A stretch of DNA of 64,000 nt from Candidatus Heimdallarchaeota archaeon (lineage in GTDB: Archaea; Asgardarchaeota; Heimdallarchaeia; Hodarchaeales; Hodarchaeaceae). How positions within the stretch are numbered: position 1 is the stretch's first letter; each line of letters starts with the position of its first letter. The notes beneath the pieces were generated by a model, which saw only the letters and a list, made by a program, of their open reading frames with translations, did not search any database and had not been told where the DNA came from. A program made the translations under genes and the position numbers. The stretch lies in assembly GCA_011364965.1 (NCBI GenBank), contig RDOB01000004.1:64001-128000 (forward strand). The letters are read 5' to 3'. This document shows, piece after piece, positions 159 to 9,086 of this stretch.

Positions 159-2330
159 CTATGTAGGTCTAAGACCTAATCGAGTAATAAATGTTGAATA
201 GAAAGCAAAACAATCAACTGATTCTTTTTCGTCTAATGTTACTGAAGAATGGACAATTCGATTTCTAAGATTTCTGAAATGAGTTATTTTTTTATCACTG
301 GGAAGATCAAAACCTCGTTTACGTAATTCATGCACTTGAAGTTGAAATATAGGTTTTAATTGGCCAGAACTTGAAACAATTTGTTGATAGCGCGTAGAGA
401 GCAAATTTTTGACTGCAGCGTCTGCTTTAATGACAAACAATTCAAAATTATCTTCTTTGAAAGCATGTTTAGCTTGATTCCATAAAACACGAACATAATT
501 GATATTCTTCTCTGCCTGTTCAGGTTCAAGAATTGAACTAGGGACTTCATTGTCTACTTTTTCTTGATAGTCGTGGACAACAAAGTTGATTCGATCTATC
601 ACCTGACTATAACTTAAATAAGAAGAGAGATTTATAAAAATCACTGGAATAAGAAGTAGGATTGTAGGAGCAGCAAGTATAAAAAAAGCTGTTGCCACAT
701 TTGGTAAATAATAAGGAAGTAGGAAATCTGAAAATAATATTAAACTTATTAAATTCACAAAATTAAGTATTAATAATCCTAAAAAGGGGAATAACACCCA
801 TTCTATTCGTCTTAATATTCGTTTTGAGACTATAAGGGTTTCATTTTCAGATGATTCAATAAAATTCAGCAAAGCATAAGTACGGAACGGTACACTAGGG
901 ATTCTTACAAGGATTGATTCACTAGGAACTTCTTTGATGCTAAAGACGCCACGGAAGCTATATTTAATAAATTTAAAAGTTTCTTTCAATGATAATGAAA
1001 ATTCCCATTGGCTTACAGGCCCATGTATTCGATAGAGTTTCCCCTGAGTATCCAGATATACTAAATATAAAGGAAAGGCTATAATGGTAATAAATGTTAT
1101 AATTGAACCTAGAACATTCCAGGCAAAAAGTGGTGGGATATGATAGTCGAAATGAACAAAAAATTGACCTACACTGGAAGATTCAGGAGATATCACCAAA
1201 TAATACAATCCCGAGTCAACTGCGTCTAATAATATCTCAAAATTTTTATCTATTGTTTGTAAAGCCTCGTAGCCAGTATATAATGGATTTGAATTCTGTT
1301 TTCCTTCATCGAAGATTTCTACTGTGGCAAATTCCAGTATTTTTGCATCAGTAGTATTTGGACCAAATACATGAATAAATACATCTGATCTGCTAGTGTT
1401 TACATAAAACCAAAAAAAATACACTCTTCGAGGAGTAAAACCCTGAACTTGTCTAATTGATAGAGTATGATTATAAGGCAATTCAATTGCAGTTTCAAAA
1501 CTATAACCAAATCCTTCAGACGTTATAGAGATATTATATATCCCAATTGGTGATGTGTCTGCTGGTTTATGTCGAATTTTAATAAAATATTGATCAGAAA
1601 CACTTGGATTCCAAGAATAATTAAAAGATCCGCTAATCTCGGTTTCGGTTAGAACTGGATTTTGAGGATAAAGTTCACGGTAAATCGTGATTTTTGCTTC
1701 AAATAGTACCGCAGGGGTTATTTCTCTCAATGAGAGTGTACTATTCTGATTTTCGTCTAAACTTACTTTCCAGTAGTGGGTTTCATGATCAATTGAAAAA
1801 TTTGCTTGAAATTGCGATTCATCGATGGCTAGTGCAGAGACTTCATTGAAACCACTCGAAGGGATCGTTGCTAGAATTGAATAGGAATAATTCTCTGATT
1901 TATCAGGACGAATGTCATCAAGTTGTATTCTCCAATCACCAACAATAGATACTTGCCACATCCCAAGATATTTGCTAGGGTGTATAATTTGTACATCTTC
2001 ATTGTCTAATTTAATATTAGAAGGATTATATAGAGATACATTAATTCCAGATCTTGGAATGATGGAAAAATAAACTAATTGACCTCTATTGAGATCTTGA
2101 AGAATCCAATTGTGAGTGTGGGATTCATTTGTGAACTCATTAGATTGAGAAATTGAATCTGTTAAAAAAAAGGTATTATTATCATCTTGGATCGTTTTAG
2201 GCATTATAAGTAATGAAGAGGGAGGTTCTAGAAAATTCTGACTTGAACTAAAATCATTAGTTTCAAATAAAAAGCTTGAAATTATAAGACAAAGAAAGAG
2301 TGATAATAAGAACGCTTTTAGTGGTTTCAT
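159..2330 (-). CDS. Receptor-like membrane protein: signal peptide, ~380 aa beta-rich ectodomain, 3 TM helices, C-terminal HEPN-like domain
   Basis: Hydrophobic N-terminus; repeated YWKV/YFIKI/YYLVI beta modules with NxS/T sequons; TM segments near aa 403-425, 510-535 and 545-570; C-terminal RNLRNRIVH motif (nt 249-266). Confidence 0.75.
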   Translation of the reverse strand: MKPLKAFLLSLFLCLIISSFLFETNDFSSSQNFLEPPSSLLIMPKTIQDDNNTFFLTDSISQSNEFTNESHTHNWILQDLNRGQLVYFSIIPRSGINVSLYNPSNIKLDNEDVQIIHPSKYLGMWQVSIVGDWRIQLDDIRPDKSENYSYSILATIPSSGFNEVSALAIDESQFQANFSIDHETHYWKVSLDENQNSTLSLREITPAVLFEAKITIYRELYPQNPVLTETEISGSFNYSWNPSVSDQYFIKIRHKPADTSPIGIYNISITSEGFGYSFETAIELPYNHTLSIRQVQGFTPRRVYFFWFYVNTSRSDVFIHVFGPNTTDAKILEFATVEIFDEGKQNSNPLYTGYEALQTIDKNFEILLDAVDSGLYYLVISPESSSVGQFFVHFDYHIPPLFAWNVLGSIITFITIIAFPLYLVYLDTQGKLYRIHGPVSQWEFSLSLKETFKFIKYSFRGVFSIKEVPSESILVRIPSVPFRTYALLNFIESSENETLIVSKRILRRIEWVLFPFLGLLILNFVNLISLILFSDFLLPYYLPNVATAFFILAAPTILLLIPVIFINLSSYLSYSQVIDRINFVVHDYQEKVDNEVPSSILEPEQAEKNINYVRVLWNQAKHAFKEDNFELFVIKADAAVKNLLSTRYQQIVSSSGQLKPIFQLQVHELRKRGFDLPSDKKITHFRNLRNRIVHSSVTLDEKESVDCFAFYSTFITRLGLRPT

Positions 2331-2521: not shown

Positions 2522-3151
2522 TTGAACCAAAATATTCGAGTTTTTAAAAAGAGACTTCAGATTGCAGAAAAGAAATGGAATGCAGTTCAAGCTCAATCAA
2601 TCAAAGCCATAAATACAATACTTGGGACTTTATCTAGATTAAATCTAATCCAACAAAGAGGTGCTTTTTCGGAGGATCTACTCGCAAAATTTCCTGATGT
2701 TCCTGAAAGAATATCCTTTCACCTGGCAGAATTGATAAATAAGAGCATTCATGATTTGAATATATACTTAAGTCAATTAAACGAAATTGTTAATGAAATG
2801 CGCAAAATAGAAGAGCAATTTCGGCAAGACTATTTATTAATAATCAAAACACAATATTCGGAGGGTAATCAATCCTGGTCACATGATCTGGAAACTCTTG
2901 AACAAGCAGAGAGGACTTTTCAAGAAATTGTTGATATGTATGATCGCGAATTATCACTCAGGAAAGAAATACTTAGCACAACTCAAAATAGCTCCTTATT
3001 TCAACCGAATTCACTAATAATCTATCTAACATTGTGGGCAGGAGAGATATATATTGAACATAACCGAATTCATGAATTAATTGAAGAATTCATGCAAGCA
3101 GAAAAGGTTTGTGAGAGAGTTCTCCAGTCTCAAGATTCGATGAGTCCTTAA
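2522..3151 (+). CDS. Helical protein resembling eukaryotic C1orf109/AIRIM
   Basis: 209 aa, helical; LAKFPDVPERI and EIVDMYDRELSLRKEIL plus two Trp match the C1orf109 pattern as I recall it. Confidence 0.55.
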   Translation: MNQNIRVFKKRLQIAEKKWNAVQAQSIKAINTILGTLSRLNLIQQRGAFSEDLLAKFPDVPERISFHLAELINKSIHDLNIYLSQLNEIVNEMRKIEEQFRQDYLLIIKTQYSEGNQSWSHDLETLEQAERTFQEIVDMYDRELSLRKEILSTTQNSSLFQPNSLIIYLTLWAGEIYIEHNRIHELIEEFMQAEKVCERVLQSQDSMSP

Positions 3152-3177: not shown

Positions 3178-4590
3178 TTAGCTTGCATGAAAGTCGGTAG
3201 TATTTAATATAGAGTCTATTGTACCATTTTGTTGAGCTTGAACGAGTAAAGCTTGAATTTTATCATTGATTGAATATTCTGGTTCTCCCTTTTCTAATAA
3301 TCCCTTGACAAGCTTCATTGAAAGGGCTAAATCTGTTTTTGCAAGATTTTCATTTCCAGCTTTACATATTGCTACTCCTCTTACAGAGGTATTTGCAGGA
3401 CCCATGACGGATGTGAAAACACATCTTTTGTCGCCAGCTGTTAGATGGTCAGGAGTGTGTCCGATCAAATCAGAACTCATTGACTGAATTGCGGAAAATA
3501 GTCCAGTATATAGACAAACTTCTTGTCCCGCAGGTCTATGACTTGCAAATAGAGGTAAACCTCCATCATCAAAGATATAAACCTCTGATTCCGAAAAAAT
3601 TTTACCAAGAATACGAAAACGTTCATCTTCTTCAGTAGCATCGAAAAGATCTCTTTTTCTCTCATTTATTGGGGAAATATAGTCGTCTCCATAGTTTGCT
3701 GACTGATTTAAGAAATTTAATGATGCAGATTTTGGGAAAACGTCATCTATAGAGTTAAGGTCTGTTATTATCAACAAAGAGGTGAAACTAGAAATTTGGG
3801 GGTTAACAATATTATTTAGGTATATTTCAAACTCATCTCCAAACGACTTGGCAACTTTTTTGGATATCAAATTTAAATCATGTAGATTAAGAGGAGAAGA
3901 AGAGCTGATAGAAATAAAAATTGCTTCAAGAGATTCAAGTTCCTCTGGCATAGAAGTAACCAATTTTTCTCCAATTTGATTAATTGAAGCCTCTAATGCA
4001 CTCTCAGCGTCTTTAGCGGCAGAAATTCCATAATATAAGCTTTTGGATGCTCCAAACAAACACATCAAATCAGGAAATGAAACACCGGGATTTAAAGAAG
4101 GAGTCAAGCTGGATAACACACAATCTATGAATATTAGATAATTCCATTTACCATTTTCATCAGAAAAGTCAAAATTAAAGTAATTGGGACCAAAAAGCTT
4201 TCGTTTCTGAGGGTTTGGATTTTTGGATACATCAATAAACAGAGGAATCGAACCAGAAAACTTTATAGAGCCAGAAATTCCCCCAAGAGCTCTTAATGTT
4301 CCTTCGTCGGAAGAATTAAAAATAAAGATTAGAAAATAGGAATTTAAAAGACTTTGGATCTGAGATAATGTTGTAACTGAATCAAAAGTCACGACTTGAT
4401 CACATATTGTATCTCCAATTGCTGTTGGAGTTAATAACAAGAGAGGAAGCCGAGATTCATCTCGGGCCGATAGATAATCATGTACGATTTTCATCTCGTT
4501 TGATAGATTATCACCAATAAATACAATTTTACCACGTGGCCTGATGTATTCAAGAAAAGGATTATTTTCAGCGATTAAACTTGTATTCAT
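3178..4590 (-). CDS. Degenerate FtsZ/tubulin-fold protein fused to a C-terminal longin/roadblock-like domain
   Basis: aa ~165-278 follow the FtsZ T7 loop and C-terminal domain pattern; aa ~330-450 contain YIFDDGGLPLF...LYTGLFSAIQSMSSDL, a longin-like pattern. Confidence 0.65.
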   Translation of the reverse strand: MNTSLIAENNPFLEYIRPRGKIVFIGDNLSNEMKIVHDYLSARDESRLPLLLLTPTAIGDTICDQVVTFDSVTTLSQIQSLLNSYFLIFIFNSSDEGTLRALGGISGSIKFSGSIPLFIDVSKNPNPQKRKLFGPNYFNFDFSDENGKWNYLIFIDCVLSSLTPSLNPGVSFPDLMCLFGASKSLYYGISAAKDAESALEASINQIGEKLVTSMPEELESLEAIFISISSSSPLNLHDLNLISKKVAKSFGDEFEIYLNNIVNPQISSFTSLLIITDLNSIDDVFPKSASLNFLNQSANYGDDYISPINERKRDLFDATEEDERFRILGKIFSESEVYIFDDGGLPLFASHRPAGQEVCLYTGLFSAIQSMSSDLIGHTPDHLTAGDKRCVFTSVMGPANTSVRGVAICKAGNENLAKTDLALSMKLVKGLLEKGEPEYSINDKIQALLVQAQQNGTIDSILNTTDFHAS

Positions 4591-4974: not shown

Positions 4975-6813
4975 ATGGATTTTGAAGTCATTAAGACGGA
5001 AGGTTGGGGAAAATTAGGTAAATTGAATAATGATGTCGAGATACTTACTCCCAATATTATTGATACATCTTTGTTTAAAGGAAGTAAAAATAAAGGATTA
5101 TCTTTTGAATGTATAAGCTATCCTTCTTTACAAAATCAGGGTAAGGATATTAATTCTATAAAATCCTTTTATGATTTATTTCCTAAAGATTTCAATGAGA
5201 ACCATAAATTCAATTTTGATTTTCACATTATACCTTGGGATTTACCAACTATTTATCTTGGAAATATTAAATCCTATTTAGAGAAAATTAGAGCATTAGA
5301 AATTAAAGAGAATGCAGAAGAACCAAATAAATTTTTCGTTGTGAACATTCCATACAGAAAATCAAAAGAGAATATCTTTGAATTATTAAAGCAATCAAAA
5401 CTTATCAAAGGAGTAATTCTCGGAGATATTTCATCCTTCTTGACAAATCCCATCAATTTACTACATTATATCAAATGGGTTAACCCTTGGGCTCAGAATG
5501 ATAAAATATTTCTAGCTTCGGGTGTACCAAAAAGCTTTATCCCTTTATTATCCTATTTGGGAATAGATATCTTTGATACAATGTATCTAGAAATGCAATC
5601 AATCACAAATTTTCCTAATTTAGAGTTATTACTTGAATTAAAACAATCCAAAGAATCTATTCTTGAAACAATACATCATACTCAAGAAGCATTAAGATTG
5701 GGCAAATTACGGGATTTAGTAAGGATTTATGCTAATTCCTTTCCTCCATTAAAAACAATTCTAAGATTGATTGACAAAGAATTAAACCTAGAGTTAGGGA
5801 ATGCCTTATATACATCTAGTACGCTTTATTGTACAGATGAAACAGATTTTACAAGGCCTGAAGTGACACGATTTCGAAAGAGAATAAAAGAACGATATTT
5901 CCCTCCGGATTATTTAGCTGGAATAATTTTCCTTCCTTGTTCTGCTAAAAAACCCTACTCTCAATCAAGATCTCATCAGATGTTCCAAGCCAGTATTCGA
6001 AAACGGATAAAAAGAAAACGCCATCTTATTCATGAAGTTATAATTACGAGCCCTCTTGGCATTGTTCCTCGTGAATTGGAGTATACATTTCCCGCGGCCC
6101 ACTACGATATTCCTGTAACAGGTGATTGGAGTGAGATTGAAAGAAATTTGTTAAAAGAGGATATAACAAACTTTTTGGGAAAAATCAACCCAAATCTGCC
6201 AATAGTAGGATATGTTGAGGGACCTGAGAAGGAAGTATTGGATTCTATCTCTAAAAAGGTAAATAGACCAATGTATCTTGTTTCAGAAGATTACAAATCA
6301 TTAACTTCGAAAGGTGCTTTATCGGAGTTTTCTACCTTATTAGCTGATGCATTCGAAAATATATCCCTAATAAAAGTCGAAGATCAGACAATACGCTTCC
6401 TTAAGGCGATTGCAGACTTCCAATTTGGTAAAGGAGTAGGAAAACAGCTTTTCTCAGGAAATATCAACATATTTGGAAGAAAGGAATTAGGGTTACGGGT
6501 TAAGAGAAACGAAGAGCATCTGGTTACATTCAACCCAGTTAACGGATTTCTAACACTTTCATTACAAGCAGCGAACTTAATATTAGACAAAACTCCCAAT
6601 ATAGTGGTTTTTGATGGAGAAAAAATAATTGGATCAACAATATTCTCAAAAGGAATTATAGAAGCTAATTCAGAGATACGATCTGGAGATGAAGTCATTG
6701 TATTAAATTCTAATAGACAGATTATTGGTGTGGGGACATCTTACCTTGCTGGAGACTTATTAGTGAGAATGAAGAAAGGAAAGGGAATTTCCATAAGAAA
6801 AAAGGTGAAATGA
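4975..6813 (+). CDS. arcS: Archaeosine synthase alpha subunit (TgtA2/ArcS)
   Basis: TGT-like N-terminus, FLPCSAKKPYSQSRSH, TSPLGIVPRELE, C-terminal PUA domain; abuts the RaSEA gene. Confidence 0.92.
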   Translation: MDFEVIKTEGWGKLGKLNNDVEILTPNIIDTSLFKGSKNKGLSFECISYPSLQNQGKDINSIKSFYDLFPKDFNENHKFNFDFHIIPWDLPTIYLGNIKSYLEKIRALEIKENAEEPNKFFVVNIPYRKSKENIFELLKQSKLIKGVILGDISSFLTNPINLLHYIKWVNPWAQNDKIFLASGVPKSFIPLLSYLGIDIFDTMYLEMQSITNFPNLELLLELKQSKESILETIHHTQEALRLGKLRDLVRIYANSFPPLKTILRLIDKELNLELGNALYTSSTLYCTDETDFTRPEVTRFRKRIKERYFPPDYLAGIIFLPCSAKKPYSQSRSHQMFQASIRKRIKRKRHLIHEVIITSPLGIVPRELEYTFPAAHYDIPVTGDWSEIERNLLKEDITNFLGKINPNLPIVGYVEGPEKEVLDSISKKVNRPMYLVSEDYKSLTSKGALSEFSTLLADAFENISLIKVEDQTIRFLKAIADFQFGKGVGKQLFSGNINIFGRKELGLRVKRNEEHLVTFNPVNGFLTLSLQAANLILDKTPNIVVFDGEKIIGSTIFSKGIIEANSEIRSGDEVIVLNSNRQIIGVGTSYLAGDLLVRMKKGKGISIRKKVK

Positions 6814-7902
6814 TTGGTTAATCTTTTGGTTGCTTCAGAAATAGCTAGAATACGTAGAGAGTATCTTGAACTTTTGGATCCTGATTCAACAGGAAAAATT
6901 TGGCATCGAATTGACGAAATGGAAGACAATATTGTAATTACGATGGTGATCCCATCTAGGGGATGTAGCTGGGCTTTGTCGGAAGCAGGAGGGTGTTCTG
7001 TGTGTGGGTATGTAAATGATTCATCTAGAGACAAAGAAATTCCTAAACAGAAAATATTGAGAGTATTGAATGAAGTTTTACATCAAATTCCGCAAAAAAA
7101 ATATGTAGAACTTAAAATTTTTAACTCAGGAAGTTTTTTTGACAATAAAGATTTACCAAAAGAATTTAGAGAGGAATTATTGAAAGTTATAACCGTTTCG
7201 GAAAAAATTTCTAAATTAACCGTTGAATGCAGACCTGAATTTGTTATACAAAACCTAAATGATATAAAAGCTGCTTGTAAATTAATAAAACAAATCAAAA
7301 TGGAAATTGGACTTGGATTAGAGAGCTCAAATAATTCGATTTTGGTGAATTGTTGGAATAAAGGAACAACTCTTGAAGAGTACACTGAAAGCGTTAAAAT
7401 CCTTCAATCTCTGAACATTAGGATAAAAACATATGTTTTTGTTAAACCTCCCTTTTTAAGCGAAGCAGAAGCAATAGAGGATACATTAACTACGATTCAG
7501 CAGGCAATTGCCTCAGGAACTGATGTGGTTTCGGTAAATCCTTGTGTAGTGCAAAATGGAACTCTAGTGAGTTTTCTCTATAAAAATGATAAATATCAGC
7601 CTCCATGGTTATGGAGTGTTCTAGAAGTTATCAAAAAAACTCGTGAGAATTTTCCGGAATTGGAATTGATTTGCGATCCTACAGCTGGAGGTAAACCTCG
7701 AGGAGCTCACAACTGTGGAAAATGCGATAAAGAAGTACTCAATAGAATAAAAAAAATAGTTCAAGGAGAAAAAATGACGGAATTTGACATAAATATCTGT
7801 TCTTGTTATAAAACATGGAAATTCTTAGTCGAATCACCAGTAGAGATGATTAGGATTAGAAATCTTTCAAAATTGCGTAAACTCAATCCATTAATGGAGT
7901 GA
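6814..7902 (+). CDS. raSEA: Archaeosine biosynthesis radical SAM protein RaSEA
   Basis: RGCSW-x6-GCSVCGY cluster motif, KIFNSGSFF, ECRPEF, YQPPWLWS, RGAHNCGKC. Confidence 0.9.
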   Translation: MVNLLVASEIARIRREYLELLDPDSTGKIWHRIDEMEDNIVITMVIPSRGCSWALSEAGGCSVCGYVNDSSRDKEIPKQKILRVLNEVLHQIPQKKYVELKIFNSGSFFDNKDLPKEFREELLKVITVSEKISKLTVECRPEFVIQNLNDIKAACKLIKQIKMEIGLGLESSNNSILVNCWNKGTTLEEYTESVKILQSLNIRIKTYVFVKPPFLSEAEAIEDTLTTIQQAIASGTDVVSVNPCVVQNGTLVSFLYKNDKYQPPWLWSVLEVIKKTRENFPELELICDPTAGGKPRGAHNCGKCDKEVLNRIKKIVQGEKMTEFDINICSCYKTWKFLVESPVEMIRIRNLSKLRKLNPLME

Positions 7903-7919
7903 ATTATACTTAATTTTTC

Positions 7920-9086
7920 CTATGTTTTACGAATCGCTTGAATTGCTTTATATAATTCTCCATTTTTCCCAAAAATCTCTGATTCCTCATGTTTTTCTTT
8001 TAATTCCTCTAAATATTTCTTTGATAATTTATCAATTTTTTTAGGAAATCGAACATAGAATCCAACATGCATGTCTCCACGCCTATTACTATTTGGGATT
8101 GGAAAACCCTTATTTCGAAGAGTATGTATATACCCAGATTCAGTACCAGGTTTAATGGAAATGGTTTCATTTCCATCAATCGTCGGAACTATTAATTTTG
8201 TCCCCAATATAGCGTCAGTATAACTAATTGGGTATTCTAATAGAATATCTGAACCATTTCTTTGAAAGAATGGATGAGAGGCAACATTAATGGCAAGAAG
8301 TAAATCACCTGATGGACCACCTAGTTCTCCAGGGCGTCCTTCTCCTCGAAGTACTACATGCATACCTGAATCGACTCCTGCGGGAATATCAGCTTCTACA
8401 GTACGAAATTGCTTCACCTTTCCCAATCCATCACACACTTCACATGCTGCTCCCCGGGGTAATGATTTTCCTTCACCATTACAGCGGGGGCAAGTCGTTA
8501 TATTAACAATTTGACCGAAAGCAGACCTTTGCACCTGACGAAGTTCCCCCGTTCCCTGACAGTAACCACATTCGTCTAATGATTTACCGGGTTTTACTCG
8601 TGAACCGTGACAAGTAGGACACTGAGCCCAATTAGGAACTTTTATCTTCTTTTTTAAACCATGAACCGCTTCATCGAAAGAAAGATCAAGATTTAATCTT
8701 ACATCTTGACCTCGCCTTGCTCGTGGACGAGAAGAACGGGAACGAGACCCTCTTCCTCCAAAAGCGCTGAATAAATCTTCAAAAATTCCAAGGCCACTAA
8801 AAAGATCATCAAGCCCCATACCAGAGAAATCATGAAATGAAGCTCCATTCAGACCAGAATGGCCAAACTGATCATATCTAGCACGTTTTTCGCTATCAGA
8901 TAAAACTTCGAATGCTTCTGCTATCTCTTTGAATTTTTCTTCCGCATTTGGATCATCAGGTTTCATATCTGGGTGATATTTCCGTGCTAGGCTACGAAAG
9001 GCCTTTTTTATCTCTTTTAAATCAGCAGATTTTGAGATACCCAGAACTTCATAGTAATCGCGTTTCTTTTGGCTCAGAATAATCAC
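7920..9086 (-). CDS. dnaJ: Chaperone DnaJ (start may be CTG at 9077)
   Basis: J domain with HPD, G/F-rich region, four CxxCxGxG-type repeats, C-terminal domain. Confidence 0.97.

Follow-up and report, generated by a model that had tools for sequence, protein, structure and literature searches.

Can a single archaeal protein carry an event at the cell surface through the membrane to the cleavage of RNA inside the cell? The question is raised by a gene near the start of a 64,000-nucleotide stretch of DNA (hereafter the window) of Candidatus Heimdallarchaeota archaeon, i.e. positions 64,001 to 128,000 of contig RDOB01000004.1 in assembly GCA_011364965.1. The gene (P0001; 159..2330, minus strand) encodes 723 amino acids (aa) plus a stop codon according to the open reading frame list and the translation. 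Its product, which we call the receptor for its shape, had been read in an initial annotation as a signal peptide, an ectodomain of ~380 aa rich in N-glycosylation sequons, a transmembrane (TM) segment, a soluble segment, a TM hairpin and a helical tail, and this architecture is confirmed here by hydropathy, sequons and structure models. The tail was proposed to be a cytoplasmic HEPN domain used by a logic like that of IRE1. Our tentative reading, to which we give somewhat less than an even chance, is a receptor-shaped membrane glycoprotein carrying a HEPN ribonuclease (RNase) whose activity would follow the state of the ectodomain, in a housekeeping or regulatory role.

The gene is real, and it is a core gene of one Asgard order that has had no earlier description. 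A word-indexed search of 5.8 billion proteins returned 61 other proteins matching the 723-aa product at E <= 1e-40. Apart from fragments at contig ends they align with it almost end to end and are mostly about 700-730 aa long, and hence a chance reading frame can be ruled out. Where names are given, these are hypothetical proteins from metagenome-assembled genomes of Hodarchaeales, Hodarchaeota, Heimdallarchaeota or 'Promethearchaeota'. The source genome (2.97 Mb, 87% complete) has a single copy of the receptor gene, and no match to PF11977 (Regnase-type NYN) was found in this genome at that completeness. We also searched 301 genomes spread over the Asgard phylum with a profile of the tail, which was present in 19 of the 20 genomes of the same genus and in both further genomes of the order (21/22 in all). 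An intact receptor was found in no other Asgard family among the 301 sampled genomes, the other profile matches falling only in the family f20. The order itself features in the debate on the origin of eukaryotes (PMC10307638; contested by PMC12222021), and no paper linking HEPN domains to Hodarchaeales or Heimdall-group archaea was found. As far as sequence searches reach, the tail belongs to an isolated subfamily. Exhaustive searching of 1.84 billion representative proteins with HMMER gave only 33 matches at E <= 0.001, about 20 of them with the same layout and 680-775 aa, and a second profile search, using a wider domain alignment against the 5.8 billion proteins, returned only fragments of the receptor's own family.

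Four hydrophobic blocks were found by a 19-residue Kyte-Doolittle scan, at aa 1-23, ~403-425 (TM1), ~511-535 (TM2) and ~543-567 (TM3). The first (2262..2330; all features of the receptor lie on the minus strand) is a putative signal peptide or signal anchor, with K2 and K5 followed by a hydrophobic core that reaches a maximum of 2.36, and most full-length relatives have such a segment. TM1 (aa 403-425, 1056..1124; maximum 2.33) is predicted to run from outside to inside. It is followed by a predicted cytoplasmic juxtamembrane domain of 85 aa (aa 426-510, 801..1055), which is net positive (13 K/R versus 9 D/E) and whose fold is without a match, neither Pfam nor the ESM Atlas giving a usable one. 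Hydropathy then indicates the TM2-TM3 hairpin (aa 511-567, 630..800) with an uncharged outer loop of 7 aa. A tether (aa 568-602, 525..629), predicted as a helix and then a disordered stretch with pLDDT (predicted local distance difference test) values of 74, 64 and 54 in blocks one to three of the domain model, leads to the HEPN domain (aa 603-723, 162..524). All full-length relatives have the same domain layout.

The protein contains 13 N-x-S/T sequons, 11 of which fall in aa 24-402. Shuffled versions of this segment have 4.6 +/- 1.9 sequons and only 0.3% of them reach 11. The main alignment of 34 homologues gives sequon densities per 100 aa of 3.1 outside and 0.5 in the parts predicted to be cytoplasmic, and 7 ectodomain sequons are retained in at least 26/34 sequences. 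In the same sequences the 15-aa flanks of TM1 contain on average 0.9 K+R ahead of it and 2.7 behind it. The count is 4.5 ahead of TM2, falls to 0.0 in the loop between TM2 and TM3, and is 1.2 behind TM3. The sequon distribution and the positive-inside charge pattern thus assign both the juxtamembrane segment and the tail with its HEPN domain to the cytoplasmic side, which supports the predicted location of the tail given in the initial annotation, and the tail is inside whether TM2-TM3 are fully spanning or re-entrant. One further sequon, N567-x-S, is found where TM3 ends on the inner side; 26/34 sequences share it, though glycosylation is not expected there. The hairpin has conserved polar or proline positions, i.e. 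D/N523, N526 (34/34), P539, P555 and T556. Such residues within TM2 and TM3, together with the conserved juxtamembrane domain, suggest that the membrane part does more than anchor the protein.

The HEPN superfamily is defined by Rx4-6H at the end of helix 3, a polar residue after the R, and Ex3[KR] in helix 2 (PMC3710099). The tail was modelled by AlphaFold2 from the 34 sequences with pLDDT 83.7, giving four core helices and an insert helix at domain residues 32-54, 58-80, 91-100, 108-124 and 130-146, i.e. the four-helix up-and-down bundle of HEPN domains with its insert between helices 2 and 3. The two strings quoted in the initial annotation are both present, AKHAFKEDNFELFVIKADAAVKNLL at aa 620-644 and RNRIVH, where it had been placed, at aa 689-694 (249..266). 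The latter is the Rx4H motif, with R689-x4-H694 at domain residues 118-123, the end of the model helix 108-124, and with N690 as the polar residue (N, D or H in HEPN domains) directly after the arginine. DAAVK (aa 637-641, 408..422) supplies D637-x3-K641 in helix 2 (domain residues 58-80) as the counterpart of Ex3[KR], with D instead of E. R689, N690, H694, D637 and K641 are invariant in all 34 sequences, including an outlier of 27% identity, and in a wider HEPN-domain set of 28 relatives the R is invariant and the N and H are retained in at least 90%. The top rows of Foldseek are HEPN structures, at weak E-values of 0.2-1, and a shape search of the ESM Atlas points to the same families, with clusters of Abi_C and Hypoth_Ymh among its matches. 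AF_0298 (2hsb) is the structure that matches best, and AbiA, AbiV, Csm6 and sacsin are among the others. These results strongly support that the tail has a HEPN fold with the complete catalytic set, and we strongly infer that it would be an RNase. None of the three outcomes that the initial annotation had named as fatal to it, i.e. a tail without the HEPN fold, an R and H that vary among homologues, or a tail outside the cell, was observed.

The tail is also the most constrained part of the protein. The mean identities to the query are 81% for the HEPN core, 59% for the juxtamembrane domain, 45% for the ectodomain, 39% for the TM hairpin and 38% for the tether. The neighbouring ArcS-like and radical-SAM enzymes have 47-54% identity in the same genome pairs, and hence the ectodomain evolves at an ordinary pace and the tail is unusually constrained. 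Judged from the helix boundaries, the invariant residues appear to gather at both poles of the bundle. W617, N618, Q619, R686, R689, N690, H694, S695, S696, E701 and K702 would lie at the motif pole, and K608, R647, Q650, R670, D675, P677, R717, L718, G719 and R721 at the N/C-terminal pole. The latter pole includes the C-terminal RLGLR (aa 717-721, 168..182; R717, L718, G719 and R721 invariant, L720 nearly so), a predicted homodimer contact with KRGFD at aa 671-675, which RGFDLP (300..317) overlaps.

The initial annotation had suggested modelling the tail as a dimer. The two-copy model of the tail scores 0.45, whereas none of its three controls exceeds 0.00. The mark of the model was reached by 20/30 proteins solved as one-chain pairs and by 1/23 solved as single chains. 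The homodimer runs share at least 78% of their contacts, and the partner pLDDT is at least 81. The model thus passes its controls and supports a dimer of the tail, while the pass may partly reflect likeness to HEPN dimers already solved. The confident contacts, I600-I610, Q650-I651, K671-D675 and T716-R721, correspond to the invariant N/C-terminal pole and do not include residues 689-694, so that the step proposed in the initial annotation, by which a ligand or stress would dimerise the protein and thereby turn on RNA cleavage, is at this point hypothetical. One reading of the model is a resting dimer, whose active poles would need clustering to meet.

Several results weigh against a gated HEPN RNase. 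No curated HEPN-clan model of Pfam or NCBIfam reached its cut-off with the tail. The best Pfam match was HEPN_RiboL-PSP (PF18735), with 17.8 bits versus a cut-off of 28.4 and E 0.0033, and HepT_toxin of NCBIfam gave E 0.04. In favour of the assignment, HEPN_RiboL-PSP also matched 20/28 relatives, weakly yet consistently (best E 3.6e-4), and DUF4145 matched two (best E 5.8e-5), the distant relative P0088 being just under the DUF4145 (PF13643) cut-off at 21.8 versus 23.1 bits. PF18735 and PF13643 are the nearest sequence profiles and share the motif form phi-R-x2-R-N-x3-H with the tail. Single-sequence and profile searches of PDB sequences found nothing relevant, and when compared profile to profile with five RiboL-PSP-HEPN sequences of Asgard archaea the tail gave a weak result (E 0.018, probability 2.6%), in which the RN..H motifs were nevertheless aligned. 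Sequence profiles alone are therefore insufficient for the HEPN assignment, for which structure is clearer. No RNase activity, substrate or ligand is on record for the receptor. A composite active site is known from Csm6 or HepT dimers, and the predicted contacts at the pole opposite R689/H694 mean that our model lacks such a site. Finally, the tether is flexible and poorly conserved, and control of the tail by the ectodomain is conjectural.

The model of the ectodomain (pLDDT 89.3) consists of three beta-sandwiches over ~380 aa that resemble the PPC or collagen-binding domains. D1 covers aa 50-157 (1860..2183), D2, which is like PPC and collagen-binding domains, aa 158-272 (1515..1859), and the PPC-like D3 aa 273-398 (1137..1514). 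The fold is that of the PPC domain (PF04151) as found in clostridial collagenases, whereas Pfam scans of the receptor gave no PF04151 match; the relative P0068 scores 25.0 bits versus the gathering threshold of 25.9. A PPC-like sandwich is a common extracellular binding fold and names no ligand. Compared by hhalign with the ectodomain profile, the corresponding regions of eight distant full-length relatives all align, at probabilities of 98.9-100% over 287-348 columns, and hence the receptor has been inherited as one unit, without exchange of ectodomains between lineages. Where the HEPN domain has other N-terminal modules, the proteins are without exception short and distantly related. Two such metagenome proteins keep the RNxxxH motif intact, P0090 (419 aa), which is fused to leucine-rich repeats (LRRs), and P0088 (209 aa), which has one N-terminal TM segment. 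The occurrence of the HEPN subfamily on LRR and single-TM partners suggests that the tail acts as a portable output module. The f20 protein (~340 aa) combines a Zn-ribbon and four TM helices with a homologue of the tail domain that lacks the R and H. This different architecture rules out the f20 matches of the tail profile as receptors. At two loci (L012:4251-5288 and L013:3352-4377, both minus strand) the genes beside that of the f20 protein encode a Hef-like helicase-nuclease and a methyltransferase.

To our knowledge, eukaryotic IRE1 is the only case known from experiment in which signalling leads directly from a receptor to the cleavage of RNA. Its sensor domain lies across the membrane from the cytoplasmic HEPN-class RNase to which it is coupled, and the receptor has a like topology. 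The activity of IRE1 and RNase L depends on self-association, and their KEN domain is a HEPN derivative. IRE1 and RNase L have a kinase or pseudokinase domain immediately before the RNase domain. Pfam scans of the whole receptor and of its parts gave no such domain, and the stretch between TM3 and the HEPN domain is only about 35 aa long. The receptor also has three TM helices and IRE1 has one. Structures of KEN, IRE1 and RNase L are absent among the structural matches that Foldseek and VIA listed for the tail, an absence that does not exclude the family. The earlier label IRE1-like therefore holds for a sensor placed opposite an RNase-type domain, but not for a specific affinity to KEN, the best structural matches being prokaryotic HEPN domains. 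No sequence relation was detected, and we regard the likeness to IRE1 and RNase L as analogy and not as family membership.

The IRE1-like logic is not new either. Anantharaman, Makarova, Burroughs, Koonin and Aravind proposed in 2013 for three bacterial groups that HEPN domains joined to TM segments respond to stimuli at the surface by a change of conformation, which in turn would alter the stability of RNA, and they drew the parallel to Ire1 themselves (PMC3710099, section 15). This computational proposal is so far the only form in which a prokaryotic route from receptor to RNA cleavage exists, and no experimental test of bacterial or archaeal membrane-HEPN proteins was found in the literature. 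The three groups are a single-TM protein with the WP signature and DUF4145, an alpha-helical outer domain followed by a TM segment and an Abi2/Swt1-type HEPN domain, and a HEPN-2TM-Zn-ribbon protein (PMC3710099). They share with the receptor one or more TM segments and a cytoplasmic HEPN domain with intact Rx4-6H. The receptor fits none of their architectures, having a signal peptide, three PPC-like sequon-rich sandwiches, a TM segment, a juxtamembrane domain, two further TM segments and the HEPN domain, and it gave no Abi_2, Swt1 or DUF4145 match in Pfam scans. It is also an archaeal, near-universal core gene in one order, whereas the 2013 groups are bacterial. We thus consider the receptor a conserved archaeal variant of the membrane-associated HEPN theme, with its architecture, fold, motif conservation and topology well supported.

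The solved prokaryotic HEPN structures, i.e. AF_0298 (2hsb), Csm6 (8jh1, 5fsh), HepT of HEPN-MNT pairs (5yep, 7ae8, 8xdj), AbiA-C (8oz7) and AbiV (9bj5), have a sequence identity of only 7-20% to the tail. These proteins are soluble and belong to CRISPR, toxin-antitoxin or abortive-infection (Abi) systems, whereas the HEPN domain of the receptor is membrane-tethered. Its predicted dimer contact is at the N/C-terminal pole and not at the motif-bearing face.

In the mechanism that we propose, the tail would be a metal-independent endoribonuclease that acts on RNA next to the inner membrane face, leaving 2',3'-cyclic phosphate ends, and it would self-associate through the invariant C-terminal RLGLR and the RGFDLP elements. 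The state of the ectodomain would set the RNase activity, e.g. by ligand binding, surface or glycan stress, or clustering. The low conservation and predicted flexibility of the tether make rigid coupling between ectodomain and tail unlikely and fit regulation by proximity better. The likeliest route would be altered proximity or higher-order assembly of the tethered HEPN domains. Gating from outside is plausible, and the receptor may in this way link the cell surface to RNA cleavage. A more specific version, which we consider doubtful, is that of a core one-component receptor of Hodarchaeales in which a surface event alters HEPN clustering and switches on the endoribonuclease, possibly coupled to the C1orf109-like neighbour described below, as a counterpart of the IRE1 type that arose by convergence and not by ancestry, in archaea near the stem of the eukaryotes. 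The family offers a clean test case in any event, with a single polypeptide, an intact motif, a strongly constrained RNase-type domain and a clear topology. If it is active and gated, archaeal signalling would gain a new class, and the regulation of RNA at membranes a new mode; if ungated, it would still be a membrane-localised RNase.

An ungated, membrane-tethered RNase is the strongest of the alternatives, and we think it unlikely, though it deserves serious weight. The enzyme would be constitutive, or controlled only from the cytoplasm by the juxtamembrane domain or a partner, and would process or degrade RNAs at the membrane, e.g. mRNAs on membrane-bound ribosomes, with the ectodomain serving anchoring, adhesion or envelope structure. 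A predicted dimer built on invariant elements far from the active site is what a stable resting assembly would look like, and the nature of the tether argues against conformational coupling via TM3. The ectodomain also evolves like ordinary enzymes and not like a specialised sensor under unusual pressure, and a neighbour of the ribosome-biogenesis type, the C1orf109-like protein described below, is linked to the gene in three different arrangements. On the other hand, unregulated HEPN RNases are usually toxic (HepT, RnlA, Csm6, Cas13) and no antitoxin-like partner was found, and neither the invariant polar and proline residues in TM2 and TM3 nor the conserved juxtamembrane domain would be expected of a simple anchor. 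A HEPN domain without catalysis, acting as a nucleotide-, protein- or ribosome-binding or scaffold module of a surface adhesin or docking receptor, is in our view very improbable. Sacsin and the nucleotidyltransferase-associated HEPN domains are precedents; the best structural match, AF_0298, and sacsin both belong to HEPN groups not known as RNases, the f20 family is conserved though it has lost the R and H, and extreme conservation could equally mark a protein-protein interface. Against it stand the five invariant residues of the catalytic set, which is lost in non-catalytic HEPN groups and marks the RNases (PMC3710099).

The initial annotation had also allowed for an antiviral sensor, whose ectodomain would detect virus attachment or envelope damage and whose HEPN RNase would halt translation as in abortive infection. 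Many HEPN families are indeed defence effectors, e.g. Abi, Csm6, Cas13 and HepT (PMC3710099), the structural matches of the tail include AbiA, AbiV and Csm6, and the same HEPN subfamily is fused to sensor-like modules in P0090 and P0088. We nevertheless judge this alternative improbable. The gene is single-copy, is present in nearly all genomes of the order and has a fixed synteny in 17/17 informative genomes, unlike defence genes, which are patchy and island-borne. Its ectodomain is homologous in all full-length relatives and is not unusually fast-evolving. No PADLOC or NCBIfam family was assigned to the receptor or its neighbours at E <= 0.01, the sole PADLOC row for the receptor up to E 0.1 being a weak CARF_HEPN match (E 0.011, 12.8 bits). 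No defence family was found near the locus, and the setting is one of conserved housekeeping synteny and not a defence island. The copy number, the near-universal presence, the synteny and the lack of a nearby defence family therefore favour a housekeeping or regulatory role over immunity, and it is this role that we would assign to the proposed gated RNase.

In the same-genus loci that we read, the gene order is DnaJ, radical SAM, ArcS-like, a 470-aa protein, C1orf109-like (divergent) and the receptor. The C1orf109 family comprises eukaryotic ribosome-biogenesis factors. The member in the window is a protein of 209 aa encoded at 2522..3151 on the plus strand (PF15011, E 9.8e-10, 39 bits versus a cut-off of 27), which matches the Pfam CA109-like family over its full length. 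Its gene adjoins the receptor gene in 17/17 same-genus genomes that have both on one contig. In two diverged lineages the other neighbours change, yet the C1orf109-like gene keeps near: at P0068 it lies next to the receptor gene in the same direction, and at P0061 the distance is 1.5 kb; none was found within 6 kb at P0079, P0081 or P0082. It is possible that this neighbour is a functional associate of the receptor. We considered it as a hidden HEPN partner on account of weak Pfam HEPN matches (E 0.015-0.054), but when four orthologues were set against the HEPN alignment in hhalign, the probability was 0.3%. The two proteins are not homologous, and their linkage in the genome stands. Across the 301 Asgard genomes, C1orf109-like matches above the cut-off concentrate in the families f1, f2, f20 and f15 and are weak in f11 and f17, and f1, f2 and f20 are the families that also carry the HEPN-tail domain. 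The C1orf109-like protein may be a eukaryotic signature protein itself.

The 470-aa protein (3178-4590, minus strand) is conserved in synteny, with 49-61% identity in two other genomes. It gave no Pfam, NCBIfam, PADLOC or ESM Atlas family, only weak FtsZ_C / FtsZ matches at E ~0.01-0.08. The ArcS-like protein (DUF5591, TGT_C2, PUA) is encoded at 4975-6813 on the plus strand, directly followed by the radical-SAM protein at 6814-7902 (plus strand), and the pair is presumably of the ArcS-RaSEA type, which makes archaeosine in tRNA. The DnaJ gene at 7920-9086 (minus strand) comes next after the radical-SAM gene. On the other side of the receptor, just outside the window, a MarR/TrmB-type winged-helix protein of 89 aa is encoded on the same strand 104 bp downstream (L002:11785-12054, minus strand). 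It has a counterpart at L004:8309-8593 and is not present in L003. A T-rich stretch past the stop codon of the receptor suggests that the winged-helix gene is on a separate transcript.

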